From assembly GCA_043228905.1 (NCBI GenBank), contig JBHGNT010000013.1, positions 4,216,001-4,280,000 on the forward strand: 64,000 bases of DNA. Reading direction: 5' to 3'. Shown piece by piece: positions 6,441 through 63,869 of the stretch. Position 1 is the first letter of the stretch, and each line of letters opens with the position of its first letter. Origin of the DNA: Azolla caroliniana. Its lineage: Eukaryota; Plantae; Polypodiophyta. A model generated the notes under the pieces. That model did no database searches. It was not told the origin of the DNA and saw only the letters and a list, made by a program, of their open reading frames with translations. The position numbers were made by a program, and so were the translations under genes.

Positions 6441-7446
6441 CAATGCCTTAGAGTCTATAACTTATATGATATATGATGTATCTAAGAAACTAAAAAGTAG
6501 GAACTTTATGAACTCTCTTTTTTTATTTTTTAAAACGAATATTTTTCCAAGCATTCAGGTGCATATTTGTATGCATTCGTTTGGTAACCTCCACGAATGC
6601 GAATATGTCCATTTATGTATGTATATATATATATAAGAGGCCTTCTTTTTTAGAGCCATTACTTCTAATCTTCTATTGCTCAATATTGATGTTGATGCAA
6701 GGACAAGTAGACGAGTTGTTGTTTTATTACACAGAAAATGGTACACAACACATAGAAAGAAGAACACAGAAAAAGGCACAAGAAAAAAATATTTTGACAG
6801 GCACACAAAAAACCCTCGTTTTATTAGTTTATATACCTAGTGTTAAATAGTGAGAATTACCTTTTTGGCCTTTCTCACTATTAGAGCTATATCCTAATGT
6901 AAGCTTGAGATAAGGATATAATAGATACAAAATAAGAAAGGAGAGAGAGAAAGAAGGATGTCGATCCACCCGACCAGCCCCGAGCGAAGGGATCAAGACG
7001 AACTCCAGCCTCGATCGACGTCCCATACCACCATTGTGGCGTCGAGTCATACCTAGTGTTGGCGCGCTCGCTGCAAGAGTTGACCCACCATGTCAGGGAT
7101 AGTACTAGAGGCAAGGAGAATTAGTACTAAAGGTAGAGGAGAAGAATGAGGATTAGTACTAAGAAGGGAAAGAGTGTGTGAGAACCACATGAGAGAGAGA
7201 GAGAGAGAGAGATAATGATGACAACAAGAAGTATATCATATTATAAGAAGAAAGATACAAGAACAACTAGGAGGCTTAAGACTGGCATTGAACCGATTTG
7301 GTTCTTGATAATGCCATGTGCCTCTTTTTATAGTAGCTTTAAGAATATTCTTGACATTTCTGGAATGTTCTAGAGAAATCTAGAATATACATGGATTTCC
7401 TAAATGAAATAATAAATGGAAATAATATTCTTTGTATTACAACTTA

Positions 7447-7504
7447 TAGCTTAATGGTAAGGCTTTCGCCCATGTGCCACAAGGTCATGGGTTCAAATCC
7501 TTTT
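7447..7504 (+). promoter_or_regulatory. tRNA-like Pol III A-box/B-box cassette in the chromovirus LTR (other copies 14149-14206 +, 53871-53928 -, 57293-57346 -)
   Basis: TAGCTTAATGG (A-box consensus) and GGTTCAAATCC (B-box consensus) at tRNA-like spacing. TTTT follows directly in three copies. Confidence 0.6.
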
Positions 7505-8798
7505 GAAACCATACCATTCTATATCATGCTATATCATGACACTTACCCCCCCTCCCCTTAAGACAACAAGTGCCACGAGTCGTCATAGATAGAGAACCTG
7601 GCTTGTTGGGATATCGTCGATGAAAGTCCTCAACAAGAGCTTGAGCATTTACCACATTCTCGACTGGTTCCCAAGTACGCTCACTTGGACTATAGCCTAG
7701 CCAATCGACCAAATGGTAGAGCTTGTTGCGGAAAATCTTGGAATCAAGGATGGCAGCTACTTCGTACCCTGGTCCTACCTCAAGCTCGATCGAGGGTGGA
7801 CGTGGTATAATACGATTCGGAATAGTGTTGTCGTGATACGGTTCGAGAAGAAAACTATGAAAAATCGGATGTATCCGTAGTTGCGAAAGTAGATCAAAAC
7901 GAAAAGCGACATCATTAATTTTTCTGATAATACGGGAAGGAGCTAATCACCGATAGTCCAATTTATCGCATGGTCGAGTAGTCTTGATGTGTCGTCGTAA
8001 TAGCCATACCTGATCTCCAATGTTAAAACTAGATGGAAGCCGATGATGATCCGCATAATCCTTTTGCGTTTGTTGAGCTTGTTGTAAATGAGTAGATAAG
8101 TCTACCTGTATCTTGCATAGCCGCTCCAAACGATCCTCTGCGCAAGGATTGATGGGTAACTCCGGAGTTTCGAATACACACTACCAAGGATGATATCCCA
8201 TATAAGCATAAAATGGTGTAACCCGAGTCGATGAGTGAACAAAGTTATTATACGCAAATTCTGCAAAGTGGAGAATATCCGCCCAGTCATCTTGTTGATA
8301 GTGTAGAAAACACCAAAGATATTGTTCCAACGTTTGATTCGTTCGTTCTACTTATCCGTCTATTTGCGGGTGATAGCCTGCAGAGAGTTCACATAGGGAC
8401 CTTGTGCATTTTGTAGAGATGCTTCCATAATTTCGAGACGAATTGGGGTCCACGGTCATTGATGATGTTATCAGGGAGGCCATGATGCCGACATACCTCT
8501 CGCATGACAGTTTCGTCAGTTTCTTCACTAATGATTTCCTTAGTAGAAGGCAGAAAATGTGCCATCTTTGTATATCAATCTACTACTATTGAGATCGCGT
8601 CGAATCCCTTTGAAACTGGAAGATCTATGATGAAATCTAGAGAAATGGATTGCCACAGCTTACTTGGAATTGGCAATGGTTCCAATAAACCATATGGATA
8701 ATGTCTTGGCATCTTTGCCCTGCGACATGTATCACATGTCCGAACATAGTCTTCGACAAATCGTTGCATATGAGGCCACCAAAATGATCGTTGAACTA

Positions 8799-10185
8799 TG
8801 TGAAGATTCGAACTCTTGACATGACCACGTTATAATCGAGTGTTATGTGTTAACCACACATCTAGCATATAATCATGTATATACTTCCTCATTGTAGGTT
8901 TTAGCTAGCATCATGTGCATAATTCCTCCCTTGTATTATTTATACTTGGCACATGTATGCGTACCTATTGCCTACATGCTCTATTGTATCACATGCATGC
9001 AACAGGTATGCATGCCACTTAGTATAAATAGTTGAGTTCACCTTGAAGGAATTCAAGGTGAACAGCGCCAGTCACGGACTTCCTATTCAACATTCATAGC
9101 CTTATTGATCATAGCCTCGTCATCCATGCTCCGTCTTAGTCCACGCTTGGTGTGTCCGTGACAGTTTGTTCACCTTCCAACTAGAAGCATCACCTATGTC
9201 CGTCATCGCCCTTGCTTCTAGAGTTACCATCATCACCGTACCATCATCAACATCGCTTCATTTCCTATCTTCCTCGCCATTTCTATCTCCTAGTTTCTTC
9301 TCATCATTTTCATTGGCTTTATATTTCTCCTCATCATTGTCTCTATTTTTTAGTTTCTTTCCCGTTCGTGTTCGTGTTCTAGTTGCCAGTGAGGGCTACA
9401 CAAGGTTGCTCACTCCCGTTGGTGTTCATGTTCCAGTTGCCGATGAGGGCTACACAAGGCCGCTCACTCCCGTTGGTGTTCGTGTTCTCTATGAGGACCG
9501 CACATGGTCACTCACACCTGTTTGTATTCGTATTCTAGCTCCTGGCAAGGACCACACATGGTCACTCATGCCCCTTGGTGTTCATGCTCCCCGTGAGGAC
9601 CGCACATGGTTGCTCACACATGTTGATATTTGTGTTCTAGTCCTAGGCAAGGATCACACATGGTCGCTCATGCCCGTTGGTGTTGAATACCTCGTCTTGT
9701 GGAAGGGTTACTCCTTGTCTAGGATTTACAAAATACTTTGGAGGTGATCTAAGATTTTCATCAACAATATCCCCTTAAGCCGACAAACTATTTGGGAAGG
9801 CATCGTTGGAGGGGGGATAATGTGAAGATTCGAACTCTTGACATGACCACGTTATAATCGAGTGTTATGTGTTAACCACACATCTAGCATATAATCATGT
9901 ATATACTTCCTCATTGTAGGTTTTAGCTAGCATCATGTGCATAATTCCTCCCTTGTATTATTTATACTTGGCACATGTATGCGTACCTATTGCCTACATG
10001 CTCTATTGTATCACATGCGTGCAACAGGTATGCATGCCACTTAGTATAAATAGTTGAGTTCACCTTGAAGGAATTCAAGGTGAACAGCGCCAGTCATGGA
10101 CTTCCTATTCAACATTCATAGCCTTATTGATCATAGCCTCGTCATCCATGCTCCGTCTTAGTCCGCGCTTGGTGTGTCCGTGACA
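8799..10185 (+). mobile_element. Non-autonomous miniature LTR element (TRIM-like); 365-bp LTRs 8799-9163 and 9821-10185; TSD AACTA
   Basis: Near-identical TG...CA repeats, AACTA at 8794-8798 and 10186-10190, PPT GGAGGGGGGATAA at 9808-9820. The 657-bp interior is non-coding. Inserted in the chromovirus integrase. Confidence 0.93.
9362..9690. repeat. Degenerate tandem repeats (about 40-55 bp) inside the TRIM interior
   Basis: Recurring gagg(a/g)c(c/t)acacatggtcactca...ccgttggtgttc units. Confidence 0.75.
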
Positions 10186-13100
10186 AACTAAACCCAATGT
10201 TTTAGTACTACCGAAATGCCCATATGTATATGTGTCATGACAATTTTGGACTACTCGAAGGCGACCAGAACCATTAGGAACATACAAGAGTTTCTTAAAG
10301 AATAGTAATCAATCATGACATTCGAAATGTCGATAGTTCGTACCAGGTTGTTGCGATTGCAAACAAGATGCCTGAGAGCGATCAATTTGTGTTAGAATTT
10401 CTTGAGCGAAAGCATCTATCTTCAAGTCCTCACGTACAGTATCTATAATGTGTGAATCCAATGGCATATCGAAAACCCGTGTTGCTTGAAGTCGTGTCGG
10501 TTGCAGGATTACTTGCTTTTGGTTATCGCAAGCTGGCACGCTAGGACGTGGTGCTAGATACGAGCGTCGTGATAATGCATCTGCCTTCCCTTGTTGCTTT
10601 CCCGAACGATATGTAATTTTGAAGTCGAAACGAGTGAGGGATTCGGCCCACCGAGCTTGACGTCAATTTAATACACGAGCATTCTGGAAGTAGGCAAGAT
10701 TTTTATGATCACTGAATACAGTGACTTGATGAGAAGATCCCTCTAGAAAATCCCTCCATTGCGTAAAAGAGTCCCCTATTGCTAATAGCTCCTTCTCATG
10801 AATTTCATAATTGATTTCGGCGGCATCAAACTTGTGCGAGTGGAAAGCCATAGGATGTAGCTTTTCATCATCACCTTGTTGTGACAAAATGCTACCCAAA
10901 GTGAAATTTGACGTGTCTGCCTCAATGATGAATGGTTTTTTCGGATCAACATGGGCTAGGATAGGAGCTAATGTAAATTCCTTCTTAAGACTCTCAAAAG
11001 CTATGTCTTCTTCTTTAGACCAAGCAAAGGACTGCCCCTTTTTGGTAAGTTGTGTGAGAGGCAGAATAAGCTTTGAGTAATCCTGTATAAACTTGCGGTA
11101 AAAATTGGCAAAGCGTAAAAAGCATTGCACATCTCGCAACGAAAGTGGATTCTACCACTCTACCATAGTTTTAACCTTAGCTGGATCCCTAGAGATGCCT
11201 TTCGAGGAGATGACATAACCCAGAAATTCCACGTGGTTGCATTCGAAACTACAGTTTTCCAATTTTGCATAAAGACCATGTTCTCAAAGCCGTTTTAGTA
11301 CTACTAGTACATGAGAATCATGCTCTTCTTGGGACTTCAAATAAACCGCTAGATCATCCAAATAGATGATCAAACAAACATCCAAGAGATCTCTGAATGT
11401 ATCATTTGCCATGTGTTGGATGACTGCTTGCACATTAGTGAGACCGAATGGCATGACCGTATACTCGAAGTGCCCATATCTAGTGCGAAACGCGGTCTTC
11501 CATTCATTTCCTAGTCAGATCTGTACAAGGTTATATGATCCTCGTAAGTCGATCTTTGTGAAGAACCTTGCACCATTGATCCGTTCTAAAAGACTTGAGA
11601 TAAGGGGGAGTGCATACCTATTCCTGATGGTGACCTTATTCAAGCCACGGTAATCTACGATGAGACAAAGTGATCCATCCTTTTTCTTGACAAAGAAAAC
11701 GGGTGCGCCAGCTAGAGATTTCGAATGTCGAATGAAACTGTTTTCCAAATTCTCCTCTATATAGGCTCGAAGGACTTCTTGCTCGGTTGGTGACAAGTTG
11801 TAGATCGGTCCCCATGGTGGCTCTTTTCCTAGTTGTAAATCAATGGGGCAATCATACGGTCGGTGGTGAGGAAGCATATTGTCTTATACCTTATCGAACA
11901 CATCGGCATAATGATGATACTTGTTTGGAAGTTGAACTGTGGATTCCTCTTTAGTGGTATTGGAAAGTTTTACTAATACCGCGAAGATGAACATTGCTTC
12001 CTTGCATCCTCCCTCACGCAATTGATGTAGCAAAATGGTTGCAATCCTATGAGTAGATCCTTGGGTTTGTCAATACCGAATTTCTCTTGTTCTGGGCTTC
12101 TAATTATATTAAATGATACTACACACACTAAATTATCTAGGACAATATTAACTGGCTCTGACTTTTCTATGATATTTCCAGAAGCAATGGGACGACCATC
12201 AATGACTACTATGGAGGCTGGACAAGGGAGTTTTCTTAGGGATATCTGATGAGCTTGGGCAAAATTCCTATCCATGAAGCAAGAATTAGCTCTGGAGTCT
12301 AGGAGTGCTAAAACATGTACTAGAGGGGTACTTTTAGTATGTACTATTACTTGAGCGAAGCACACATTGTTAACTTGCTTAGAGGGAATGGAACCACTAA
12401 TGGGCTACACCGATTTACGGTTGTCTAACCAAACGACTCTTATTTTGGCTGGACTTAGTCGTTTAACTCTTCTTCTAACTCACTAAGGACATCAAATTTG
12501 TTTGATAGACATGGGCTATTAGTACTATTAGGACTATCAGACACTCCTACTGAAATTGACTTGGGTTTAGTACAAGAAACTATTTGATTTACCTGTCTTA
12601 TTGGCCTATGTGGATAGTTTATTGTGATTTACCTGTCTTCTTGGCCTCCACAGTAAAGACATAATCGATTTACTCAGCGTCGTTGCTTTTCTTCTTCCGA
12701 TAATGGTCCACGATGACGTGTGGTGTTGATTTCCATCGGTGTTGGAGTATTTGCTAGATATGCATGATATGAATCCCTTGCAAATGGTTTTGCTACAACC
12801 GAGGCGTATGTGGGCTCCAACCTGGTCCTTGGCATTTGTAACTGGCGTTCTGAACATCGTTCGAAAAGTCGGTTATCGCATCGTACCGCTTGACTGATTG
12901 CCTCTGTGAGAAATTCTGGTTCTTCGGAGAAAGTCAGGAGAAATTCTTTGACATCATTTCGTACGTCGTATCGAAATTTCTCCATCAATGCTTGGTCAAC
13001 CCAAGGGATATCTGAAGCGAGTAGACGGAAATCTGCACCATAAGCAGAGGCTGGACAATCACCTTGATGTAATCGTCGGATTTTGTTGATTGTCGTCCTT

Positions 13101-13514
13101 ATGCTATCAATATCTCCAAAACAGGCTTTAAACTTGCTTATAAACTCTTCAAAACTATTTAGTTAGGGAGAACTTTTTTCCAAGAACAGAGCGAACCATG
13201 CCAAAGTTGAGCCGCTTAGTAACGTGCCTACTAGACCCACTCATGATGCATCAGTGGGATATCGGGAAGGATGCATTTGAATGACTGATCGTACCTGATT
13301 AAGGAATCCTCTGAACTGTGCGCATTCCATCAAATTTCATAGGAAGGCCGATCTTGGGCTCTTTATGAATCCCTTGAGTACTTGATCCTTGTTGTTGCAA
13401 TGCTACAATGCTTGCTTCAAGTTGTTGCACGCGTAATGTTAACTCCCCATGTTGTTGTTGCGCTTGTTGCTTTTCTAAAGAGATTTGTTGAAGATCCCCC
13501 AACAACTGTTGAAT

Positions 13515-13720
13515 TTTTTGTTCCAATGTGACAAACCTTTCTTTCAAGCACTACAACTCCGAGAAAACAATTTGGTATTCTTGAGCGCTAACAATTGCCA
13601 TTGTATTGGAGGAAGGTTTTTTGTTCCAATGCGACAAACCTTTCCTTCAAGCACTACAGCTCCGAGAAAACAATTTGGTATTCTTGAGCGCTAACAATTG
13701 CCGTAGTATTGGAGGAAGGA
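13515..13720. repeat. About 107-bp tandem duplication at the chromovirus gag start
   Basis: ttttttgttccaatg...actacaactccgagaaaacaatttggtattcttgagcgctaacaattgcc...ggaggaagg occurs twice. Confidence 0.85.
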
Positions 13721-15125
13721 AGGATAAGAAGATTAGTATGAAGGGAAGGAGGGATATGAAGCAGAAGAGGGAAAAATTGGTTCAAACTGTCAGGGATAGT
13801 ACTAGAGGCAAGGAGAATTAGTACTAAAGGTAGAGGAGAGGAATGAGGATTATTACTAAGAAGGGAAGGAGTGTGTGAGAACCACGTGAGAGGAGAGAGA
13901 GAGAGAGAGAGAGAGAATGATGACAACAAGAAGTATATTATATTATAAGAAGAAAGATACAAGAACAACTAGGAGGCTTAAGACTGGCGTTGAACCGATT
14001 TGGTTCTTGATAATGCCATGTGTGTCTTTTTATAGTGGCTTTAGGAATACTCTTGACATTTCTAGAATGTTCCAGAGAAAGCTAGGATATACATGAATTT
14101 CCTAAGTGAAATAATCAATGGAAATAATATTTTTTGTATTACAACTTATAGCTTAATGGTAAGGCTTTCGCCCATGTGTCACAAGGTCATGGGTTCAAAT
14201 CCTTTTGAATCCATACCATGCTATATCATGACACACCACAATGACAGAGTCTCGACGTAGTCGATAATGTGTCCAATGAGGGTACATATTTATAGCCAGA
14301 CCTAAGGCCTCGAGGCAAGTTCACACTTGGCCTAATGGGTTGTCCCTATCCCAAGGATTAAAAGTAACCCTGTCCTTCTTTACACTGTCGTTTAACCCTC
14401 ACACTTTATCGACGTGTATATAATACTATGATAAAACTTACCACGAGATATTATATGGTCATGCTAGTAACACTCACTATCTACCAATTTCCCACTAATG
14501 GCCAAACAAGGGATTAGCAAAGTTGATGGGAAGATTGCACTAGACCTACACATCCTACTTGATGAATATGTTACACAATATACATAAAATAGTGTGTAAC
14601 CTAAAGAGCTAAGTAATTCCCATCAAGTGACAACAATGCTCTAGTGCATCATGCGGTAGAGCTTTGGTCAATGCATCTGCGACATTTTCTTGAGAGACAA
14701 CTTTCTCAAGATTGATGTGGCCAAGAGCCATGCATTCTCGGATGAAGTGATATCGCACTCCAATGTGCTTGGTCTTTGCATGGTATATTAGGTTTTTAGT
14801 GAATGCAATGAAACTTTGACTATCGCAAAACAGTATGGGTCCAAGTTTAGGTATGCCCATGTCACAAGCTAATCTGGACAACCATAGAGCTTCCTTACAT
14901 GCTTCACTAACTGCGACATACTTTGCTTCTATAGTGGACAGAGTAGTACACTCTTGGAGGCGAGATCTCCAAGATATGGCACCTCCCATAAACTGAAAAA
15001 TATACCCCAAAATAGACTTTCTGCTATTAGAATAACCACCATAATCAGAGTTTTTATATCCAATAATGGATACATTTGCACCACCTAAACATAGACACTT
15101 ATTCTTGGTGCCACTCAGATATCTT

Positions 15126-19246: not shown

Positions 19247-22200
19247 TGTTAGGAATTGACGCTTTCAATTTCTTCACCTCTCGACCACAACCGAGGAAAC
19301 ACGAATCAATGCAGCAGAAAATCGAAAACACAGAGAGAGACTCGAATGCACAGGGTTTAGCGTGGAAAACCCTAGACGGGAAAAACCACGGGAGTGTAAG
19401 ACTCCAACTATCACTATACGCAGGGAATGTACAATGGCAAGCTGCAAGGTGACGACCTTGAGCTCGCTGTCCTCGCCACAGGCGGCGGTATTACACAGAG
19501 GCGTCTACCTCTTCCTTTCTCTCTCTCTCTCTCTCACTCTCTCTCTCGACTGCTCTCACTTCGCTCCCTCTAAGTGGAAAACAGAAAAAATGAGCAACAA
19601 CCAGAAAACTGTTTGCCCTAAGTCATATTTATACACATATGACTTTCGGGCTATTTACAAATATAGCCTCAGGGGCCCTTGGCAAACATATTCACAAATA
19701 TGTCCCCGCATCCGGATCTCTCTCCGGGTACATTCGTCATCCGGCTCCCTAGCCGGGGTCTTCATCATCCGGATCCGGAGCCGGGGTCTTCATCATCCGG
19801 ATCCGGAACCGGGTCTTCATCATCCGGCTCCGATAGCCGGGGTCTTCATCATCCGGCTCCGATACCGGGTACTCCTCATTCGGGTCTTCATTCCCGATTC
19901 CCGGACATCCGACCATCCCATCCGGAGGGACCGTAATCCCAACAAACTCCCCCTTCACTTCGTCATGGGATGTCTTTCCAGTCCGACCCTCTTCCGGCAC
20001 GCTTCCAGCTTGTCGGGTGTGAGCACTTTGGTCAGCATGTCTGACCCGTTCTCGTCCGTGTGGATCTTCGTCAACACGAACTCCTGGTCTTCTATCCTTT
20101 CCCGGATCCAGTGATATCTTCGTTGGATGTGCTTCGTCCGGGAGTGATAGGCCGCGTTCTTCGCAAGGTGGATGGCACTCTGACTGTCGCAGTAGAGTCG
20201 GTACTCCTCCTGCCGGATACCGAGCTCTCTAATGAAGTCCTTCATCCATATCATTTCCTTGCCGGCTTCAACAGCCGCCATGTACTCCGCCTCCGTGGTT
20301 GACAATGCAACCGTGTTCTGCAGCCTCGACTGCCACGAAACAGCTCCCCCTGCATACGTCATCACATACCCTGATGTGGACCGGCTGGTATCTGCATCAG
20401 CCGACATATCCGAATCGGTAAAGCCGTCGAGTTCGGGCTTACCGGAGCCGAATCAGAGGCACACGTTTGCCGTGCCCTTCAGGTATCGGAGTATCCACTT
20501 GGTCGCGTTCCAGTGCTCTTTGCCGGGATTGCTCATGTACCGGCTCACCACTCCGACTGCATATCCTATGTCCGGTCTTGTACACACCATTGCGTACATC
20601 AAGCTTCCGACGGCAGAGGCATATGGTACTTTCATCATGTCCTCCTTCTCAGCCTTTGTCTTGGGGCTTTGCTTGCTGGACAACTTGCAGTTTGCCGGGA
20701 GGGTTGACCCGACCGGTCTTGCTTCCGACATGTTGAACCGGTGAAGCACCTTTGTCACGTACTTCTCCTGTGACAGCCACAACTGCTTCTTCTTCCGGTC
20801 CCGGATGATGTGCATCCCTAGTATTTGCCTCGCCGGACCCAGGTCCTTCATTGAGAAGGTTCGGTGAAGCGCTTTCTTCAGCATCCGTATCTTGACCTGG
20901 TCTCGTCCGACGATCAACATGTCGTCCACGTACAGGAGGAGTATTAGAAAGTCTCCTCCTTCGAACTTCTTCACAAACACGCAGTGATCGGACTGCGTTT
21001 TGTGGTACCCTTCGTCGGTCATGAAAGAGTCGAACTTCCGGTACCATTGCCGGGGAGCCTGCTTCAGTCCGTAAAGGCTCTTCTTCAACCGGCATACCAG
21101 GTGCTCCTTCCCTTTCTTCTCGAATCCTTCCGGTTGCTGCATGTAGATCTCTTCTTCGAGGTCACCGTGAAGGAATGCCGTCTTCACGTCCATCTGTTCT
21201 ACCTCGAGGTCCATGCTTGCCGCTATGCTTAGCACCGTCCGGATGGAGGTCATCTTCACTACCGGGGCAAATATCTCGTCGAAGTCGACGCCCTTCTTCT
21301 GCTGGAACCCCTTCACCACGATCCTGGCTTTGTATCTCGGGGGGTTTCCGGCATCTCCCGGTTTCAGCTTGAACACCCACTTGTTTCGAAGTGCCCGCTT
21401 TCCTTTCGGCAACTCCACAAGTTCATATGTGTGGTTCTCATGCAGGGAATCCATCTCCTCCTGCATGGCACTTAACCACCTGCGGCTATGGGTGTCAAGC
21501 TTTGCTTCTTCAAAACTCTCCGGCTCCCCTTCGTCGGTTAGCAGCACGTGCTCTGGTTCCGGAAATCTCCGGGGGGCCCTTCTCTCTCTTAGAGGATATC
21601 TCCGTTCCGGAGCTTCGGTAACCGGCTCCTCCGTTTCCTCTTCATCCGAATCCATTTCGGGATCGGGGCCGGTTCCGGTATCATTTTCATCTTCCTCGGC
21701 CGGTTCTGTTTCTTCACCGTCTTCGGCCGGATCCTCGAGTGCTAACCGGTCCCTTGCCGGTCGGGACTGCTCCTCGTAGAGTTGATCCTCACTGGTCGAC
21801 TTGGATCTCTTCATCTTCTTCTCCGACTCCCAGTCGGCGAGTGTCTTGTCCTCCATGAAGATGATATCACGACTCCGGAATATCCTTTTGTCGACCGGGT
21901 CCCATACACGGTAGCCGAACTCGTCATCGCCGTAACCGAGGAATATGCATGGCCGGGTCTTTGGATCTAGCTTTCCTCTCCGGTCCTTTGCCACATGCAC
22001 ATATGCGAGACACCCGAACACCTTCAGATGCCGGTAGGATACTTCCCTACCGGTCCACACTCACTGCGGCGTGTCTCCGTCCAAAGGTACTGAGGGTGAT
22101 CTGTTTATCACGTATGTCGCCGTCGACATTGCCTCAGCCCAAAACCCCTTGGGTAATTTCGCATGCGCCAGCATACTCCGGACCCTCTCCATTATGGTCC

Positions 22201-24784
22201 GGTTCATCCTCTCGGCCAGCCCGTTCAGATTCGGCGTCTTCGGCACAGTAAACTCGAGCCGGATTCCCTTCGAGCGACAATACTCCTCGAACTGCCCCCG
22301 GTATTCCCCTCCGTTATCCGCTCGTATCGCTTTTAGCTTCTTGCCGGATTCCCTTTCCACTCTCGCGTGGAGTTCTTTGAAGACGCACAACACTTGGTCC
22401 TTTGTCTTCAACGGTGCCGTCCACAGCTTCCGGCTGTGGTCATCAATGAATGTCACGAAGTACTGGGCTCCGCCATGTGACTTCGTTTCTACTTGACACA
22501 CGTCAGTGTGCACCAACTCCAGTGGTGCGCTACGTCTCGTCGGTGGCCTTGAGTGGAAGGAGGTTCGGTTCTGCTTACCGGCCAGGCAATCGGTGCACTT
22601 CTCCAGGTGCACATGCTTCACTGGAATAAGGTTGTCTTCTGCAAGCCTCTTCATCCCCTTCTCACTCATGTGGCACAGTCTCTTGTGCCACAGCTCACCG
22701 GCAGTGTCGGCTGCCACGTTCAACTCTTCCGGACACAACCAGGCATTCATAAGGTACAATGTGTTGACTTTCCGGGCCCGAGCCACTATCAGGCTCCCCT
22801 TGCTGAACTTCATTACGCAGTTCCGGATGCTACCTGTGTAGCCTTCATCGTCTAGCCTCCCGGCCGAAATCAGGTTCAATCGAACCTCCGGAACGTGTCG
22901 GACATCCTTCAGCAACATTTTGCATCCGGTCGAGGTTGTCAACCACACGTCTCCTATGCCGGCAATCCGGCACGTACCTTCATTTCCCATCCGAACACAG
23001 CCATGCTCACCGGCTCTGTAGGATGAGAAGTATCTTCTTTCCGGGGTCAGGTGGAACGACGCTCCGGAATCGACCACCCAGGTAGTCTCATCGCCAGCAA
23101 TGTTTAGTTCACCTTCTTCGGTGATGAGCATGATCTCCTCTTCACTTGCCGCGAGTGCCGTCGTTCCTTTCCGGTCCTGCCCTCGCCGATCCGAACCATT
23201 CCGGTCCGTGGCTCCCCGGTAAGCACCGTTCCGTTCCGAAGACTTCTTCGAATCGGTGTCGTCGGCTCCGTTGTCTTTTCGGTAATGCCGACAATTCTTT
23301 CGGAAGTGCCCCGGCTTCCCACAGTGGAAGCATGTGGGCCTTCCTCTTGACTGCGACCGGGTCCCCGACTTCTCCCGTCTTTGCGGACTCCGGTTCCGTT
23401 GTCTTCCCCGATCCGATTCGGTAAGCAGCATCTTCGGATCGGAGGCCGGTTCTTTATCTCTCCGACGCGCTTCTTCGTTCAAAATGCTTGTCTTTACCGT
23501 TTGTAGGGACAAGTTATCTTCGGTGCAGGAGGTGCTGAGAGTCACCACCAAGTTCTCCCAGCTTGCCGGCAATGTACACATCAGGATGATGGCTTGCATT
23601 GCATCCTCCAACGGGAACTTGATCGCCGCAAGCTGGTTCACGAATCCCATGAACGTGCTTACGTGTTCCACCATACTCTCGTCGTCCCGGTACTTGAGGT
23701 TCACTATCTTCCTCATCAGGGAGGTCCGGTTCAACGCATTCTTCCTCTCGTAGAGGCCCGACAGCTTCTGCCACATCTCATATGCGTTGGTGTCGTTCGC
23801 CACATGTTGTAGAACGCTCACGTCGACGTATTGCCGAATGGTTGCAACGGCTTTCCGGTTCAGAAGCCTCCATTCCGTCTCAAGTACCCCCTTGGGTATT
23901 TCCGACCTGTCGATCGTTTCATACAGGTCCCGAACAATGAGCAGATCCTCCATCTTTATCTTCCAGTCGGCGTAGTTCTGCGCATTCAGCACTATCATCC
24001 CAGGCTGCCCGCTGCTGCCGCCTTCCATTTTCTGCACTGCAGTCGCTCTGATACCAGATTGTTAGGAATTGACGCTTTCAATTTCTTCACCTCTCGACCA
24101 CAACCGAGGAAACACGAATCAATGCAGCAGAAAATCGAAAACACAGAGAGAGACTCGAATGCACAGGGTTTAGCGTGGAAAACCCTAGACGGGAAAAACC
24201 ACGGGAGTGTAAGACTCCAACTATCACTATACGCAGGGAATGTACAATGGCAAGCTGCAAGGCGACGACCTTGAGCTCGCTGTCCTCGCCACAGGCGGCG
24301 GTATTACACAGAGGCGTCTACCTCTTCCTTTCTCTCTCTCTCTCTCTCACTCTCTCTCTCGGCTGCTCTCACTTCGCTCCCTCTAAGTGGAAAACAGAAA
24401 AAATGAGCAACAACAACAAAACTGTTTGCCCTAAGTCATATTTATACACATATGACTTTCGGGCTATTTACAAATATAGCCTCAGGGGCCCTTGGCAAAC
24501 ATATTCACAAATATGTCCCCGCATCCGGATCTCTCTCCGGGTACATTCGTCATCCGGCTCCCTAGCCGGGGTCTTCATCATCCGGATCCGGAGCCGGGGT
24601 CTTCATCATCCGGATCCGGAACCGGGTCTTCATCATCCGGCTCCGGAACCGGGTCTTCATCATCCGGCTCCGATAGCCGGGGTCTTCATCATCTGGCTCC
24701 GATACCGGGTACTCCTCATTCGGGTCTTCATTCCCGATTCCCGGACATCCGACCATCCCATCCGGAGGGACCGTAATCCCAACA
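19247..24784 (-). mobile_element. Young, structurally complete Ty1/copia; LTRs 19247-19944 and 24060-24784; PBS 24045-24056; TSD CTATG
   Basis: TGTT...AACA LTRs are nearly identical. CTATG at 19242-19246 and 24785-24789. PPT (GAAGGGGGAG on minus) at about 19947-19956. Confidence 0.97.
19955..24028 (-). pseudogene. Copia gag-pol polyprotein (gag, CCHC, PR, INT, RT, RNase H) in one frame with two premature TGA stops
   Basis: ORFs 22061-24037, 20453-22060 and 19955-20407 share a frame. Stops at 22061-22063 and 20453-20455. Motifs: CFHCGKPGHFRKNC, WVVDSGAS, QMDVKTAFLHG, LYVDDML, RTKHIQRRYH. Confidence 0.95.
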
Positions 24785-53315: not shown

Positions 53316-56300
53316 AACACCACCAATATATGTCAGTCAATACATCCCTTTGATTGATGAAGGTGAACCAGAGTGCAATGAAGAAGCCACAACCGACAAG
53401 CATAGTGAGAAGTGGCTAAATGCAATGCAAGAAGAGATGGATTTCTTGCACGAGAATTATACCTACGACCTAGTAGAGCTACCAAAAGGTAAAGAGAGCA
53501 CTCAGGAATAAATGGGTCTACAAATTGAAGATTGGAGAAGCCGACAATGCGCCCAAGTATAAAGTTCACATTGTGGTGAAGGGTTTCCAACATAAAAAGG
53601 GTGCCGACTTCGACGAGATTTTCGCACAAGTCGTGAAGATGACATCCATCTGAACTGTTCTGAGCATAACTGCCAGCATGGACCTAGAGATCGAAGAATT
53701 GGATGTCAAGACAACATTCTTGCATGGGGAGCTAGATGAAGAGCTTTACATGCAACAACCCGAAGGCTTTGAGGAGAAAGGGAAAGAGAACCTGGTGTGT
53801 CGACTGAAGAAAAGCTTGTATGGTCTAAAACAAGCTCCACACTTGTCATGATATAGCATGGTATGGCATTAAAAGGATTTGAACCCATGACATTGTGTCG
53901 CATGGATTGAAGCCCTACCATTAAGCTATACATTGTAATACAAAAAATATTGTTTTCATTTATTATTTCACTATAGAAAATTGATGTATATTCCAGATTT
54001 CTCTGGAACATTCTAGAAACTTCAGGATTACTCCTGATAGCACTATAAAAAGAGGCACTAGGCATTATTTCAAACCAATTCGGTTCAAACTGTCAAGGAT
54101 AGTACTAAAAACAAAGAGAGAATTAGTACTAGAGAAGGAAAGTACTATGAGGATTAGTACTACGAGGAAGGTAGTGTGTAGGACGAGAGAGAGAGAGAGA
54201 GAGAGAGAATGAAGATAACATGTGATATATTATATGAAGAGTAAGTACAAGAATAGCTTGGAGGCTTAAGATTTTACGTTGACGTTTTTGATAAGGTAAA
54301 AGCTAGTACTCTTCCTCATTATCAACCGTATAATTGGCCCATTGATTTACAAACAAGAAAAGAACCACCGTGGGGATCAATCTACAACTTGTCACCAACA
54401 GAGCTTGAAGTTCTTCGAGCTTACATAGAGGAAAATTTGGCAAACAGGTTCATTCGACATTCGAAATCTCCAGCCGGTGCACCCATTTTCTTCGTCAAGA
54501 AAAAAGATGGCTCACTTCTTCTAGTCGTGGATTACCGTGGCTTGAATAAGGTCACCATCAGGAATAGGTATGCACTTCCCTTGATCTCGAGTTTTTTAGA
54601 AAGGATTAATGGCGCCAAGTTTTTCACAAAAATTGACTTACGAGGAGCATATAAACTTGTACGGATTCAAGTGGGAGACAAATGGAAGACAGCTTTCCGC
54701 ACTTGATATGGGCACTTCGAGTATACAGTTATGCCATTCGGCCTCACCAATGCGTCAGCAGTCTTCCAACACATGGCAAATGATATATTCTGAGATCTTT
54801 TGGACATCTGTTTAATCATCTACTTGGATGATATGCTAGTTTATTCAAAGACATAGGAGGAGCATGATTCTCATGTACTATTAGTACTAAGACGACTACG
54901 ACAACATGGTCTTTATGCAAAGCTGGAGAAGTGTAGTTTTGATTGTAGCCAAGTGGAATTTCTCGGCTATGTCATTTCCTCGAAAGGCATCTTTATGGAT
55001 TCAGCTAAAGTCCAAATTGTGTTAGAGTGGCAGACTCCACATTCGTTGTGAGATGTGCAATGCTTTCTAGGATTCGCAAACTTCTATCGCAAGTTTATAC
55101 AAGACTACTCAAATTTTATTTTGCCGCTCACACAACTTACAAAGAAGGGTCAATCATTTGTTTGGTCTAAGGAAGCGGACATGGCATTTTAAGGTCTCAG
55201 GAAAGCATTTACATCGGCTCCTGTTTTAGCTCATGTTGATCCGCAAAAACCATTTATCATGGAGGCAGATGCATTAGATTTCACCCTCGGTAATATTTTA
55301 TCACAACAAGGTGACGAAGAGAAGCTACATCCCTTGGCGTTTCACTCACGCAAATTTGACACCGCCGAAATCAACTACGAGATACATGACAAGGAGCTAT
55401 TAGCAATAGTGGACTCTTTTGCACAATGGAGGCATTTTTTAGAAGGATCTCCTCATCAAGTCACTGTATTCAATGATCACAAGAATCTTGCCTACTTTCA
55501 GAATGCTCGCGTGTTAAATAGACGACAAGCTCGGTGGGCTTAGTTCCTCACTCATTTTGATTTTAAGATTACATATCATCTGAGCAAGCAATAGGGGAAT
55601 GCAAATGCATTATCTTGACGTTCATATCTAGCTCCTCGTCCTGATGATCTAGCCTTCGACAATCAAAAGCAAGTAATCCTGGGTCCGACACGACTTCAAG
55701 CAACGTGGGTCTTTGAAAATTGACACTCCATTGTATTCCTGCATTATCGATACCATACGTGAAGATTTGAAGACGGATGTTTTCACTCAAGCTATTCTAG
55801 ATCAAATTGATTCTTCTCGGGCATCTTGTTCACGATCACAAAAACCAGGTATAGATTATCAACAATTCAAATGTCATAATGGATTACTCTTCTTTAAGAA
55901 ACTTTTGTATGTTCCCAATGGTTCGTGCCACCTTCGAAGTACAAAATTGTCATGACAAATATACAGTCAGACGTTTTGGTAGTACTAAAACATTGGATTT
56001 AGTACAACGATCATTTTGGTGGCCTCATATGTGAAGATTTGTTGAAGACTATGTTCGAACATGTGATACATGTTGTAGAGCGAAGATGTTGAGACATCAT
56101 CCATATGGTTTGTTGGAGCCATTACCGATCCCAAGCAAACCATGGCAATCTATTTCTCTCGATTTTATCACAGATCTTCCGGATTCAAGGGTTTTCAATG
56201 CAATCTTAATAGCGGTAGATCGATTTACTAAGATGGCACATTTTGTGCCCTATACTAAAGAAATTACTAGTGAAGAAACCATCGTAATTATTATGCGTGA

Positions 56301-57538
56301 AGTATTTCGGCATCATGATCTTCCGGACAGTATCATCAATGATCGTGGACCGCAATTCGTCGCTAAATTTTGGAAGCATCTCTTTTAAATGGTCAAGGTC
56401 ACCTGCAACCTCTCCTTCAGCTATCATCCCCAAACAAATGGACAAGCTGAACGTACCAATCAAACGTTGGAACAATATCTTTGGTGTTTCGTAAGCTATC
56501 AACAGGATGATTGGGCGGATATTCTACATTTTGGTTAATTTGCTTATAATAATTCTATCCACTCATCTACTAGGGTTTCACCATTCTATGCTTATATCGG
56601 CTACCATCCTCGCTGGTGTATGTTAGAAACTCCTGAGTTACCCACAAATCCTAGTCTAGAGGATCATTTGGAGCGGTTACGACGAATTCAGGTAGAACTA
56701 TCTACCCACCTACATCACGCCTAGCAAACACAGAAGGACTATGCAGATTGTCATCAGCTTCCATCCCCTTTTAATATTGGAGATTGAGTATGGCTATTAC
56801 CATGGCACATCAAGACTACTCGATCGTGTGACAAACTGGATTCTCAACGGTTAGGCCCTTTCCGTATTAATGGAAAAATTAATGATGCTACTTTTGGCCT
56901 TGATCTTCCTCTGCAACTACGGATACATCCCCCATACATCCAATATTTAATAGTTCTCTCCTAGAACCCTATCAAGATAGCGTTATCCCAAATCGTATTA
57001 CACCACCTCCACCCCCGCTCGAACTTGAAGATGGACCTGAGTTCGAGGTTGCTGCCATCCTCAACTCCAAGATTGTTCGCAACAAGCTCTATTATTTGGT
57101 TGATTGGCTCGAATATAGTCCAAGCGAGCGTACTTGGGAACTAGTGATGAATTTGGCGAATGCTCGAGCTCTTCTTGAAGACTTCCATCGTCAATATCCA
57201 AACAAACCAAGTCCTCAATCAAAGACAACTTGTAACACTCGTCATTTAAAAAGTGGGATAGTGTCATGATATAACATGGTATGGCATTTAAAGGATTTGA
57301 ACCCATGACCTTGTGTCACATGGGTTGAAGCCTTACCATTAAGCTATACATTGTAATACAAAATATAGAAAATTGATGTATATTCCAAATTTTATAGAAC
57401 ATTCTAGAAACTTCAGGAGTATTTGTGATAGCACTATAAAAAGAGGCACAAGGCATTATTTCAAACCAATTTACGCCAGTCTTAAGCCTCCTAACTATTC
57501 TTGTACTTACTCTTCATATAATATATCACTTGTTATCA

Positions 57539-57603
<65 letters not shown>

Positions 57604-57605
<2 letters not shown>

Positions 57606-58649
57606 GATGGAATGAATGTGCTACACGCCTCTTAGAGGCGGGCAAGCGAGCATACTATGCATTTGAGAACACATGCAATCTTGGAGATATTAAGTGTTGG
57701 GTTCTCAAGAAATATCTTTTCGACACTTTGGTGACACCGGTTCTTCTTTATGGGGTGGAAGTATGGTGCGGTAGCATCCCTAAATCTATGTGGAAAGAGT
57801 TTGAAAATGTCCAAAACCATTTTCTTACCAAGTTTCTACAAGTTAAGAAACAAACGCCCTACACCCTCCTCCTCCTTGAGATGGGATCGCTTCCCATTGA
57901 GATCATGGCCATGGAAAGGGTTCTTGAATACATGCTTAAGGTTCAAAAAAGTTCCTCACATCGACTTCCTAGAATTGCGTGGGAAGCAAGCAAAAAGATC
58001 CAAAAGACGCATAAAAGCAAAATTTTGTGTTCCAGTTGGATGCAAGATATAGAAAAATGGTTTGGTAGATGGGATGCAAGACACTTGCTTCATGATGCAT
58101 CATTAGATTCCTCTATAAATGAGGCATTTTTGCAACGCCAATGTATCATGACATGGGACAAATGTGGAGGCTCATGCTTCACACATTATACTACACATGT
58201 TGCACCTAAATACAAAACCATATTCTTTGTGGAACGGGGAAATCGTACACATCCATACATGTTAGAGCCCATACCGTTATCTGCCATTCGAACCATTGCT
58301 TCCATACGACTTAGCTCACATGCATTGCGATGTGAAATAGGGTGTTGGGGTACAAGTGATGAGAGTGGTCGGCTATGCACACTTTGCCCTAAACAAGTTC
58401 GCGAGTCTGAGTATCACACTTTGATACAGTGCTCTGCCTTTGATCATATTCGACCATGCTTTCCACATGTCTTTGATCGAGCCCAATCTTTGCATGAATT
58501 CCTCTCACAACCACAATGTGCACTCTCAATTGCAACATTCATTGGTAAAGTTCTTGAACATCGAGAGTCACTACTCACTTTCACACGTATCACGTGAAAT
58601 GTAATATTTTTTGTCTCATAGGTCATATTTGACCTCCGAAGACGATAAT

Positions 58650-58655
<6 letters not shown>
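57604..58655 (+). mobile_element. 5'-truncated non-L1 LINE (RTE/RTEX-like) 3' end
   Basis: VTPVLLYGVEVW and C-terminal CTLC...EYHTLIQC. The 3' UTR ends in gataatataatctctct. Confidence 0.8.
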
Positions 58656-58688
<33 letters not shown>

Positions 58689-58689
58689 C

Positions 58690-60815
58690 ACGACTTGTCT
58701 ATGCATTGTAAGAATTTATATGAGTTATCTCTTGCCGGAAAGATGATGTGTTATGGTTCTCTTTCACATATGTCTCCCTTCTTTACAATTGAAGATATAT
58801 GCATAGGACTTAAGAATTTGGTCTCTCGAAAGGCAAGTGATCTTCAATGTATAAAGGCTCAAATGCTCAGATGGATGGAAAGGAACCACATGTATAGATA
58901 AGCGATATGTTAAATGATGCATTGCAACATTGTATGCCGTGCGATTTGACTACAAATTGGATCAAACCTTTACATAAAGGTAGAGATGTAAATCATGTAA
59001 ACAACTATTGAACCATCATGGTTGGCTCATTAATGGCAAAACTATTTGGATGTATAATGGAATCAAAGATAAGTGTATGGGCTGAAAAAAATGGTAAGAG
59101 AGCTTATGGACAAGCTGGCTTTCGAAAACACCATAGCACCATTGATCACCTTGTCACTGTTCGAGTATTAATGGAGGAAAGTTGCCTTAGAGGTAAAGGT
59201 TTATATTGTTGCTTTGTAGACTTCAAGAAAGCATTTGATATGGTATCTCGTGAGCATCTTTGGAGGCGAATGGAAGAACTTGAGGTGCCAAGTGAATATA
59301 TGCTTGCAATTTCCCGAATTTATGAGAAGGTTATATGTTGTGTGCGCATGAGAGATAAACTTTCAGATTTTTTCAAAACCACTATTGGTGTTAAGCAAGG
59401 ATGCCCACTCTCACCAACACTATTTGGTCTATGCATTGATGAATTGGATGAAATGGTTACCAAGTTTGCAAAGGAAGAATGTGTTGAAGAAGTTGTCATT
59501 GGGAATGTTGTGATTATGCTTTTGCTATATGCAGATGATGTAGTGTTTTTTGCAAATAATTTAGGAGATGCACAAAAGTTTATGGAGGCATTGGAAAAAT
59601 TTTGCATGCATATTAAATTAAGTGTCAATAGCTCTAAAACAAAGATTATGCTTGTGAAGAGCCAAAAAAAAGATAAACCATGCATTATGTACAACAATGA
59701 GCCACTTGAATGTGTGGAAAGTTTCAAATATCTTGGCCTTGAAGTTCCTTCAAATCATAGATGGAATGAATGTGCTACACGCCACTTAGAGGCGGGTAAG
59801 TGAGCATACTATGCATTTGAGAACACATGCAATCTTGGAGATATTAAGTGTTGGGTCCTCAAGAAATATCTTTTCGACACTTTGGTGACACCGGTTCTTC
59901 TCTATGGGGTGGAAGTATGGGGCAGTAGCATACCTAAATCTATGTGGAAAGAGTTTGAAAATGTCCAAAACCATTTTCTTACAAAGTTTCTACAAGTTAA
60001 GAAACAAACGCCCTACACCCTCCTCCTTGAGACGAGATCGCTTCCCATTGAGATCATGGCCATGGAAAGGGTTCTTGAATACATGCTTAAGGTTCAAAAA
60101 ATTCCCTTACATCAACTTCCTAGATTTGCATGGGAAGCAAGCAAAAAGATCCAAAAGACGCATAAAAGCAAAATTTTGTGTTTCGGTTGGATGCAAGGTA
60201 TAGAAAAATGGTTTGGTAGATGGGATGCAAGACACTTGCTTCATGATGCATCATTAGATTCCTCTGTAAATGAGGCATTTTTGCAACGCCAATGTATCAT
60301 GGCATGGGACAAATGTGGAGGCTCACGCTTCACACATTATACTACACATGTTGCACCTAAATACAAAACCATATTCTTTGCAGAACGGGGAAATCGTACA
60401 AATCGATACATGTTAGAGCCCATCCCATTATCTACCATTTGAACCATTGCTTCCATGCGACTTAGCTCACATGCATTGCGATGTGAGATAGGGCGTTGGG
60501 GCACAAGTGATGAGAGTGGTCGGCTATGCATACTTTGCCCTAAACAAGTGTGCGAGTCTGAGTATCACACTTTGATACAGTGCTCTGCCTTTGATCATAT
60601 TCAACCATGCTTTCCACATGTCTTCGACCGAGCGCAATCCTTGCATGAATTCCTCTCACAACCACAATGTGCACTCTCGATTGCAACATTCATCGGTAAA
60701 GTTGTTGAACATCGAGAGTCACTACTCACTTTCACACGTATCACGTGAAACGTAATATTTTTTGGTCTCATAGGTCATATTTGACCTCCAAAGACAATAA
60801 TATAATCTATCTATC
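58690..60815 (+). pseudogene. Longer 5'-truncated copy of the same LINE, including the RT domain
   Basis: Motifs: QAGFRKHHST, FVDFKKAFD, GVKQGCPLSPTLF, LYADD, FKYLG. Internal stops present. Confidence 0.88.
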
Positions 60816-62702
60816 TATCTATCTCATCCTACACACTACCTTCCTCTTAATACTAATCCTCATAGTACTTTCCTTCTCTAGTACTAATTCTCTCTTTGTT
60901 TTTGGTACTATCCCTGACAACGCCAGTGGTACAAGAAGTTCAAATCCTTCATGGTGGAACATGGGTTCCAAAAAACACAGACAAATCACAATGTGTTCGT
61001 CAAAAGGTACGCCAAAGGTGACTTCTTGATTCTTTTATTATATGTAGATGACATGTTGATAATCGGTCAAGATACAAGGAAGATAGGATGCTTGAAGAAA
61101 GCTCTAGGCAAATCGTTTGCCATGAAAGATCTTGGACCGGCTAAACAGATCTTGGGAATGCACATAATTCGAGATAGAACTAAACTAAGAAAGTGTTGTG
61201 GTTGTCACAACAGAAGTATGTGACAAAGATACTAGAGAGATTGAACATGTCAGAAGCAAAGCCGATCGGCTCGGTGTTGCCGACAAACTACAAGTTAAAT
61301 ACAAAGCAATGCCCAAGAGAGGAGAAAGAAAAGGCTGAGATGAGGAAAATATCATATGCCCCAGCCATCGACAGTCTAATGTATGCTTTGGTCTGCAAGA
61401 GATTAGACATAGCTTTTGTTGTGGGGACAATAAGTCGATACATGAGTAATCCAAGACGAGAACATTGGGCAACGGTGAAGTGGATGCTCAAGTACTTAAA
61501 AAGCACCTCGGTGTTATGCTTAAGGTATGGTGTTGGAAAACCCATGCTTGAAGGGTTTACCGACTTGCACATGTTGGGGGATGTAGACTCAAGTCGATCT
61601 AGCTCGGGGTACGTGATGGCCTATGCATGGGGAGCTGTGTTGTAGCAGTCATGACTACAGAAGTCTGTGGCCTTGTCGACCATAGAGGCAGAGTACATGG
61701 CAACGGAAGAGGCCGGCAAAGAGCTAATTTGGATGAGGAATTTTCTCAGCGAGTTGGGGATGAAGTAAAGGGAGTTCTTGCTTCATTGTGACAGCCAGAG
61801 TGCCATACATCTAACAAAGAATGCAGGAAAAAGTTGAAGAAGGAGAGTTTACTATCATGAAGATCCATACCGACGAAAATGGATCTGACATGTTGACAAA
61901 GAACCTGTCGATGGACAGACTTAGAGTATGTCGACAGAAGACAGGACAGATCGATTCCCTCCCACAGGAGTGAAGGGGGAGTTTGTTGGAAATATGTCCC
62001 TCTAGTGGGAGGAGCTGGTTGTTTGGGCCGAGAAGAGTCGACAGTCGAAGACAAGGAGGAGCCGACTGTTCGGGTCGAGTACCGATAGTTGAAGAGTCGA
62101 CAATAGAGAGTCAACTGATTAACTGTCGATTATTATTATTGTGATAATAATAATAATAATATAGTAGAGGCTACATTTGTAAATAACCTATATGATGTAT
62201 GAGTATGAATACATCTAGGGCAAAAAATATAGTAAAGAGAGAGAGAGAGAAAGAAAGAAAGCAAGAAATATTAACGTCTTCTAAGGCCAAAATTGGCCCA
62301 TGAGACAAATGGTTTACAAAAAAATGGGATATTTACCCATTCATCGAAAGTAAAAATAAAAATAAAATAAAAAATAGAGAGAGAGTTGAAACAATACTGT
62401 GTGAGCCTCTGTTGGTGCTAGTGATAGAGAAGAGAGGTCGAGAGGTCGAGAGAGTGGCACCGTAGCCGAGTGAGGTTTGATGCCAAGAGCCCTGTGTGGC
62501 TGTTACACTTTGTAGAGAGAGAGTGTTATAATCTCATCATCTTGTATATCCACTGTATAGTGAAGATTTGTTCTCCAGTGGTTTCCCCTCGTTTATGGTT
62601 TCCGCGTCGTAAATCACTGTGTATTGTGGATTTGCTGTTTCCGTGTGTATTTTGTATTTCTGAGTTAGTATTTCTCACAGGTTTGAGATTTGATTCTCAA
62701 TA

Positions 62703-63760
62703 GTTCCTTCAAATTATAGATGGAATGAATGTGCTACACGCCACTTAGAGGCGGGTAAGTGAGCATACTATGCATTTGAGAACACATGCAATCTTGGCGA
62801 TATTAATTGTTGGGTTCTCAAGAAATATCTTTTCGACACTTTGGTGACATTGGTTCTTCTCTATGGGGTGGAAGTATGGGGCGGTAGCCTCCCTAAATCT
62901 ATGTGGAAAGAGTTTGAAAATGTCCAAAAACATTTTCTTACAAAGTTTCTACAAACACCCTACATCCTCCTCCTCCTTGAGATGGGATCGCTTCCCATTG
63001 AGATCATGGCCATGGAAATGGTTCTTGAATACATGCTTAAGGTTCAAAAAAGTCCCTCACATCGACTTCCTAGAATTGTGTGGGAAGCAAGCAAAAAGAT
63101 CCAAAAGACGCATAAAAGCAAAATTTTGTGTTCCGGTTGGATGCAAGATATAGAAAAATGGTTTGGTAGATGGGATGCAAGACACTTGCTTCATGATGCA
63201 TCATTAGATTCCTCAGTAAATGAGGCCTTTTTGCAATGCCAATGTATCATGGCATGGGACAAATGTGGAAGCTCTTGCTTCACACATTATATTACACATG
63301 TTGAACGTAACTACAAAACCAATTTCTTCGCGGAACAATGAAACCGTACACATCAATACATGTTAGAGCCCATCCCGTTATCTACCATTCGAACCATTGC
63401 TTCCATGCAACTTAGCTCACATGCACTACGATGTGAGACGGGGCGTTAGGGCACAAGTGATGAGAGTGGCCGGTTATGCACACTTTGCCCTAAACAAGTT
63501 TGAGAGTCTTAAGTATCACACTTTGCCACAATGCTTTGCCTTTGATCATATTCGACCATGCTTTCCACATGTCTTTGATCGAGCCCAATCCTTGCACGAA
63601 TTTCTCTCACAACCACAATGTGCACTCTCGATTGCAACATTCATTGGTAAAGTTCTTGAACATCGAGAGTCGCTACTCACTTTCACACGTATCACGTGAA
63701 GTGTAATATTTTTTGGTCTCATAGGTCATATTTGACCTCCGTGACGATAATATAATCTAT
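62703..63760 (+). mobile_element. Third truncated copy of the same LINE
   Basis: Colinear with 59743-60810. Ends in gataatataatctatct followed by (TCTCTG)n. Confidence 0.85.
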
Positions 63761-63869
63761 CTTTGTCTCTGTCTCTGTCTCTCTTTGTGGGTGTTTGGGA
63801 TTTTACCGAAGACCATCATCATGGCATGTATAGAGAGGCTTTGGTGTTTTCCCTGGCCATTTTTCAGAG

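Follow-up and report, generated by a model that had tools for sequence, protein, structure and literature searches.

Pol III promoters are known in the long terminal repeats (LTRs) of short non-coding elements, where they make genomic RNA. Helenus TRIMs (TRIMp3) contain a tRNA-derived sequence in both LTRs, with TRGCY and YGG conserved in box A and GGTTC in box B (Kojima 2024, PMC10886601). According to the accessible text of that paper, these elements are non-coding, 311-1263 bp long and equipped with tRNA-type primer binding sites (PBSs), which match the 3' end or the anticodon loop of a tRNA; their tRNA parts are mostly not working tRNAs, and insertion of a SINE into an LTR is proposed as their origin. 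The accessible part of its supplement places the tRNA part of Helenus-1_SMo and of two ToGe LTR consensuses on the sense strand, as the proposed source of genomic RNA. The same text states that 'not a few' LTRs in Repbase hold tRNA-like pieces, that only elements shorter than 1 kb were studied, and it argues that the autonomous partners of elements with Pol III-type LTRs must rely on Pol II. Helenus is named only in passing in the accessible parts of later papers (PMC13570524, PMC12859917). The Cassandra and Ajax TRIMs also have a Pol III promoter inside both LTRs, but this promoter is of type 1 and derived from 5S rRNA, and it drives the own transcript of a non-autonomous element (PMC10886601, accessible text). 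Insulators made of tRNA genes or TFIIIC sites (ETC) are described at host loci of yeasts and animals in the accessible text of PMC11346459, and no report of a plant retrotransposon LTR that carries such an insulator was found.

The window, which is the whole 64-kb stretch of DNA analysed, contains two members of a coding Ty3/gypsy chromovirus family. Element 1 spans 14233 to 7091 on the minus strand and is 5756 bp long without a nested insert of 1.39 kb. Its 5' LTR (13788..14233, minus strand, 446 bp) has the ends TG and CA, its 3' LTR (7091..7541, minus strand, 451 bp) is identical to the 5' LTR at 419 of 441 aligned bases, and a 5-bp target duplication is located at 14234-14238 and 7086-7090. 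The sequence contains a polypurine tract (PPT; 7542..7559, minus strand) and a TATA box that presumably belongs to the Pol II promoter of the element (14027..14034, minus strand). The gag-pol region (7527..13550, minus strand) encodes gag, RT, RNase H, integrase and a chromodomain with an aromatic cage, and is broken by stops and frameshifts. Element 2 (53844..57603, plus strand) belongs to the same family and is 84% identical to element 1 in U3 and 82% in pol; its gag and protease are deleted, and its 3' LTR starts at 57262 and is truncated at a CT run. The two copies are defective, and element 2 is damaged in both of its LTRs. Profile hits were obtained for six of the eight stretches scanned, to gag, RNase H and chromodomain with the frames of element 1 and to RT, integrase and chromodomain with those of element 2. 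The Pfam Chromo hits have E values of 1.7e-12 and 2.2e-11, and the cage residues Y/F, W and Y are present. Uninterrupted Pol frames with up to 70-85% identity per segment are found in metagenome assemblies (P0001, P0227), and many metagenome Pol frames end in GGIVS, which is the translated PPT and LTR start as in element 2. The nested insert, located in the integrase region of element 1, is an unrelated small LTR element (8799..10185, no strand assigned) of 1.39 kb, with 366-bp repeats that are 99% identical and with short internal tandem repeats. Element 1 also contains a 10-bp duplication at the start of its 3' LTR (7531-7541), which is absent from the 5' LTR, and a 103-bp tandem duplication in its leader just before gag (13514-13719).

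The family resembles the Tcn1/Tf1-sushi elements, as far as these are described in the accessible parts of PMC6317226, PMC2864245, PMC3350952 and bioRxiv 10.1101/2022.12.06.519325, in its aromatic-cage chromodomain, 5-bp target duplication, separate gag and pol frames and predicted self-priming. Its length of roughly 5.7 kb with LTRs of roughly 450 bp is close to that of SM-Tcn1 (5704 and 440 bp), and the same source gives a self-priming PBS for 83% and a 5-bp target duplication for 100% of the Tcn1 clade (PMC6317226, accessible text). The family therefore fits the Tcn1 clade of non-seed plants, an assignment from the cage, size, duplication and priming and not from tree placement. The PBS of element 1 (13774..13785, minus strand) is located 2 nt after the LTR end and does not start with TGG. 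Eleven of its 12 bases pair with the start region of the element itself, where a self-primer is predicted at the presumed transcript start (13986..14001, minus strand; primer 13990-14001). The first base of this self-primer (14001-13990) lies 33 nt downstream of the first base of the TATA box, and the duplex is predicted to form in the folded leader; the PBS may nevertheless match a half-tRNA of the host. Element 1 is likely to be self-priming in the manner of Tcn1/Tf1 elements. The initial annotation had remarked that the family appears not to use a tRNA primer, and this is likely right, because Tf1-type elements prime themselves with the same layout (PMC4600332 and bioRxiv 10.1101/2022.12.06.519325, accessible parts). 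Priming without tRNA is ordinary for the Tcn1/Tf1 clade. In element 2, an inverted R-U5-PBS segment (54077..54271, minus strand) is joined to U3 exactly at the self-primer/PBS homology. The layout of this inversion is that of a self-primer followed by minus-strand strong-stop DNA, but a fold-back of DNA at the inverted repeat would give the same result.

All four LTRs of the two elements contain an A box and a B box, as had been claimed. The A-box motif is matched exactly at 7447-7463 and 14149-14165 (plus strand) and at 53912-53928 and 57330-57346 (minus strand), and these four exact matches compare with 0.03 matches expected in the 64-kb window with up to two mismatches. The B-box motif is matched exactly at 7489-7500 and 14191-14202 (plus strand) and at 53875-53886 and 57293-57304 (minus strand), against 0.32 matches expected in the window with one mismatch. 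Of the positions given in the initial annotation for the cassettes, 7447 and 14149 on the plus strand are correct, and 53875 and 57293 on the minus strand are ends of B boxes and not starts of A boxes. The distance between the two motifs is 25 nt instead of the 30 nt or so that had been given. A generic pattern of A and B boxes finds only the four LTR cassettes in the window; its mean count is 0.01 in 100 shuffles of the window, and it is found in none of 20000 shuffles of one LTR.

The tRNA-like cassette in the 3' LTR of element 1 extends over 7447..7504 (plus strand), with the A box or D arm at 7447-7463, the B box at 7490-7500 and four T's at 7501-7504, and is antisense to the element. According to the motif matches, the cassette in the 5' LTR of element 1 (14149..14206, plus strand) points outward from the element, and those of element 2 are located at 53871..53928 in the 5' LTR (minus strand; also from contig data) and at 57290..57346 in the 3' LTR (minus strand). 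The B box is directly followed by four T's in three copies and by TTTA, a run of three, in the copy in the 3' LTR of element 2, in agreement with the earlier description. The location in U3, antisense to gag-pol, is likewise borne out, with approximately 30 bp between the end of the cassette and the start of the LTR. In the 5' LTR of element 1, the cassette and the TATA box are arranged back to back with 115 bp between them. The DNA upstream of the cassette is AT-rich, with 5 G/C among the adjoining 40 bp.

The best Rfam match of the cassette is tRNA, as obtained by single scans of two of the four copies. The scores are 21.4 bits for the 3' LTR of element 1 (7444-7506, model positions 5-66) and 16.8 bits for the last copy, at 57290..57346. 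Both scores are below the cut-off of 29. When the whole window is scanned with Rfam at E of 1 or lower, the cassettes are not listed; they appear only in narrow searches. ARAGORN finds no tRNA gene. In tRNA numbering, the spacing is exactly that of class I from position 8 to 62; the D stem pairs at all four positions and the T stem at four of five with wobbles, and the acceptor stem pairs at only one to four of seven and the anticodon stem at one or two of five positions. A functional tRNA is rejected on the basis of the scores below the cut-off, the ARAGORN result and the broken acceptor and anticodon stems. The cassette is a promoter-bearing relic of a tRNA, and not a tRNA, because it combines the exact spacing with a lost cloverleaf and a score below the cut-off.

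The anticodon arm is replaced by a 7-bp hairpin (7468..7492, plus strand; arms 7468-7474 and 7486-7492), in which tRNA positions 30-36 pair with 48-54; this holds for each of the four copies, with 28 of 28 cells paired. Two pairs vary on one side only, and no two-sided change is found among the four copies. The CCCATG/CATGGG hairpin described earlier therefore exists, but it does not lie wholly in the spacer, because its right arm extends into the B box, and the sequence is TCCATG in one copy. The fold energy of the cassette is not clearly beyond that of shuffled sequences, with z values of -0.5 to -0.9 in three of the four copies and -2.0 in the fourth.

The cassette has the elements of a type-2 Pol III unit, which are A and B boxes at tRNA spacing, AT-rich upstream DNA and, in three of the four copies, a T4 terminator. 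A CAA triplet is present at tRNA positions 1-3 of the cassette and not at -7 to -3, where it is located in Arabidopsis tRNA genes (PMC7544208, accessible text); CAA within 10 bases is found in only 36-45% of angiosperm tRNA genes (PMC11700998). The proposal that a tRNA-derived type-2 Pol III promoter resides in U3 of a coding chromovirus family is upheld by the box spacing, the Rfam tRNA match and the pol and chromodomain hits.

With its TRGCY/YGG and GGTTC box signature in both LTRs, this family is similar to Helenus. It differs from Helenus in that it is a 5.76-kb gag-pol chromovirus with hits to gag, RT, RNase H, integrase and chromodomain, in that its cassette runs antisense and has a T run at its end, whereas the Helenus examples are sense, and in that its priming looks self-directed, whereas the Helenus PBS is of the tRNA type. 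Membership in Helenus is rejected, because the element is coding, the cassette is antisense and the PBS lacks a TGG start. Cassandra, to which the cassette had been compared initially, is comparable in having a Pol III promoter in both LTRs, but Helenus, with its tRNA-derived LTRs, is the better comparison. A tRNA-like LTR cassette is not mentioned in the accessible parts of the descriptions of Tcn1/Tf1-sushi elements (PMC6317226, PMC2864245, PMC3350952, bioRxiv 10.1101/2022.12.06.519325), and no description of an antisense tRNA promoter in an LTR of a coding chromovirus was found in the open-access literature. A Pol III promoter for genomic RNA is rejected as well. The cassette is unable to make genomic RNA, because it is antisense and because the sense strand contains 29 runs of four or more T's. 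If a full-length coding chromovirus keeps a tRNA promoter that is antisense and has its own terminator, this promoter needs a purpose other than genomic RNA.

The cassette is a trait of a high-copy family. When a 465-bp stretch was mapped to contigs, 1604, 1253, 1790 and 730 contigs were found in four runs (organism labels A, A, B and C), and a 125-bp stretch around the cassette gave 609, 234, 260 and 267 contigs in four runs (organism labels A, C, D and E), each of which has contigs that span the entire 125 bp; six of 17 sequencing runs were used for this mapping. The loose contig ends of all four runs contain a second subfamily with another spacer, a D loop that is one base longer and the A-box changes A9G, C11T, T12C and T16C. 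In a second approach, the query was a spurious antisense frame that covers the cassette, the LTR start and the PPT and extends into the chromodomain. This search gave 17 hits and then 20 hits, 12 of them new, of which 10 were read. Twelve of the 27 frames read reach the B box; as judged by eye, seven are compatible with an intact core and five are broken. One spurious antisense frame (P0375) represents the second subfamily and continues from its cassette through the LTR start and PPT into the chromodomain; its B box, read by eye, has G57 and G59. Two others (P0367 and P0369) have 54% and 61% identity with the query and show that more divergent copies contain the cassette as well. No pair of A and B boxes, by either a strict or a loose pattern, is found in 10 distant relatives on viral contigs (35-42% identity). 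An alignment query finds no cassette among 287 stretches of viral contigs, where the LTR-end pattern gives no site and the B-box pattern one unrelated site. The 125 candidate stretches from metagenome contigs yield two loci that both stop short of the LTR. None is found among 72 stretches from prokaryote genomes, and the two pattern hits there are bacterial tRNA genes. No free-standing SINE copy with the same head is present within the 64-kb window.

As a tentative explanation, which we prefer without great confidence, the cassette is a captured Pol III promoter that acts as a TFIIIC platform at the LTR edge beside the Pol II promoter. It would have been captured once, likely from a tRNA gene or a tRNA-derived SINE. 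TFIIIC would bind to the A and B boxes and load TFIIIB onto the AT-rich stretch that separates the cassette from the TATA box, with the two promoters standing back to back. In the 5' LTR, this assembly would form a nucleosome-poor barrier that separates flanking heterochromatin from the Pol II start. The group I chromodomain likely directs the element to heterochromatin, and the cassette is likely retained because bound TFIIIC would keep the outer LTR edge open. A Pol III transcript, if any, would be a hairpin RNA of approximately 60-70 nt ending at the T run inside the LTR; no long antisense RNA into pol is expected, because the T run would stop the transcript within the LTR. According to the accessible text of PMC11346459, TFIIIC binds to chromatin templates and relieves repression by nucleosomes, and tRNA genes act as insulators. 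In MAGGY, H3K9me2/3 is the target of the group I chromodomain (PMC3350952, accessible text). A barrier role in plants is weakened by the misplacement of CAA and by the silencing of methylated tRNA genes in repeat regions of Arabidopsis, which is reported in the accessible text of PMC7544208. If the TFIIIC barrier is real, it would represent protection of a promoter by an element that likely inserts into heterochromatin, and it would offer a high-copy system in which insulators of the tRNA type could be tested in plants.

It is somewhat less likely that the cassette is a passenger, a tRNA or SINE head that was inserted once into U3 of a master element and has been copied without function, with boxes inherited from the donor. 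The pattern of conservation bears on both explanations. Only one of 29 box columns is variable among the four LTRs, as compared with 57 of 216 columns in the rest of U3 (p=0.003) and 7 of 25 in the spacer (p=0.014), but these LTRs amount to approximately one independent comparison, and the limits of the motifs were chosen for invariance. The variable column is one of the 17 in the A box. The earlier statement that both boxes are invariant thus holds for the B-box columns among the four LTRs and fails for the A box, which is moreover polymorphic across the family. The spacer between the boxes has also diverged more than the boxes between elements 1 and 2, which argues against a passenger, as does the retention of the T run directly after the B box. 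The four terminator T's have no variant of at least 7% in any of four runs.

The core promoter positions in tRNA numbering are presumably the following 11: 8, 10, 14, 18, 19, 53-56, 58 and 61. With this list, variants that reach at least 15% in some run of the 125-bp contig data are found at none of the 11 core positions and at 14 of the 43 other cassette positions (p=0.024), and variants of at least 7% at 2 of 11 and 22 of 43, respectively (p=0.049, same data and list). When the test is restricted to G/C sites, the p values are 0.06 at 15% and 0.11 at 7%. The frequent A-box variants, which are A9G (up to 34%), C11T (up to 47% as the minor form), T12C (up to 44%) and T16C (46% in one run), are all located at degenerate positions. 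The two subfamilies differ at several positions of the A box, D loop and B box, and none of these is a core position as far as readable, which is again unfavourable to a passenger. None of the top 24 variants in the 465-bp contig data is located in the boxes (p=0.07).

Several results are nevertheless those expected of a passenger. Transitions are the most common type of neutral change, and the frequent A-box variants are of this type; the statistics are modest (p of 0.02-0.07). In the contig data the flanks vary no more than the boxes: variants of at least 7% occur at 9 of 17 positions in the A box, 3 of 12 in the B box, none of 30 in the LTR end and 3 of 40 in the upstream flank, a comparison that is biased because local alignment clips variant flanks and the flanks are poor in G/C. 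Individual copies decay freely, as C56T, which breaks the B box, reaches 2-13% and as the B box is broken in the five frames mentioned above. Preferential conservation of the boxes, as predicted initially, is thus seen among the four LTRs and for core against non-core positions, but not for boxes against flanks in the contig data. This variant pattern agrees with mild selection on the lineages that replicate and free decay of copies once they are inserted; neutral evolution is also possible. Even a passenger cassette would give rise to many false tRNA-like hits when genomes are annotated. In X10 and X3, five single contig joints of low depth bypass the A box, and none of its letters is listed between the joined parts. 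Differences in depth along the LTR were left aside, because they depend on the reference copy and the filter. In the variant table for 53875-53935, C-to-T variants are approximately twice as frequent on the antisense strand as on the sense strand across the cassette, and the G's of the hairpin and B box have none at 7%.

The cassette may alternatively act through its product, although this is improbable. The 60-70 nt Pol III RNA would pair with the PBS and compete with the self-primer, thereby restraining reverse transcription, or, when trimmed, prime the minus strand. This RNA would be fully complementary to U3 of the genomic RNA just past the PPT. Element 1 contains the heptamer GGTTCAA five times: each LTR has one copy in the cassette and one in the self-primer site, and the only other copy is complementary to the PBS. 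The B-box segment of the cassette can pair with 13779-13787 over nine bases at -11.0 kcal/mol, an energy that 27 of 5000 shuffles reach, as do 3 of the 264 tiles into which the element was divided, the cassette and self-primer tiles included. Changes in the hairpin among the four copies keep the pairing of the antisense strand through G-U pairs. The match between the B box and the PBS was noticed after the fact, however, and the fold energy lies within that of shuffles in three of the four copies. The self-primer also fits better, because it forms 11 of 12 pairs, lies at the expected distance from the TATA box, leaves a 2-nt gap and forms in the folded leader, whereas the cassette pairs over only nine bases with its 3' end unpaired and with the first three pairing bases buried in the hairpin (unpaired probability 0-0.07). 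It is very improbable that a tRNA-derived RNA made by the LTR, with its T-loop segment matched to the PBS, primes or blocks reverse transcription without a host tRNA. If the RNA does act on the PBS, this would be a new route of control or priming.

The self-primer site is itself similar to a B box. The sequence at 13986-13996 (minus strand) matches the full B-box consensus on the sense strand, as does that at 7284-7294 (minus strand). The full consensus has seven matches in the window against 0.8 expected, and six of the seven are located within these LTRs. Each intact LTR thus has two B-box-like sites, arranged back to back and separated by approximately 200 bp. An A box before the B-box-like self-primer was looked for on the sense strand and was not found.

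The primer site of Ty3 is bipartite. A role of the sense strand, in which 3' U3 of the genomic RNA binds a host tRNA through complementarity to its D and T loops or the hairpin serves in packaging or strand transfer, would agree with the location of the cassette 30-90 nt after the PPT in the genomic RNA, would constrain the core positions likewise and could use a hairpin that forms on either strand, but it is quite unlikely, because the element has no tRNA-type PBS, pairing with tRNA would be patchy owing to a spacer unlike the cloverleaf, the G-U-type changes favour the antisense strand (in four sequences only), and the T run and AT-rich upstream DNA are left unexplained.

Other mobile elements are present in the window. 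Three LINE-like RT fragments (57601-58673, 59755-60825 and 62717-63784) are 91-95% identical, and the first of them begins at the CT/GA run of the 3' LTR of element 2, which suggests insertion at microsatellites. A copia element at 19247-24784 has two nearly stop-free frames, with 666, 535 and 165 codons between stops, and LTRs that are 96% identical.
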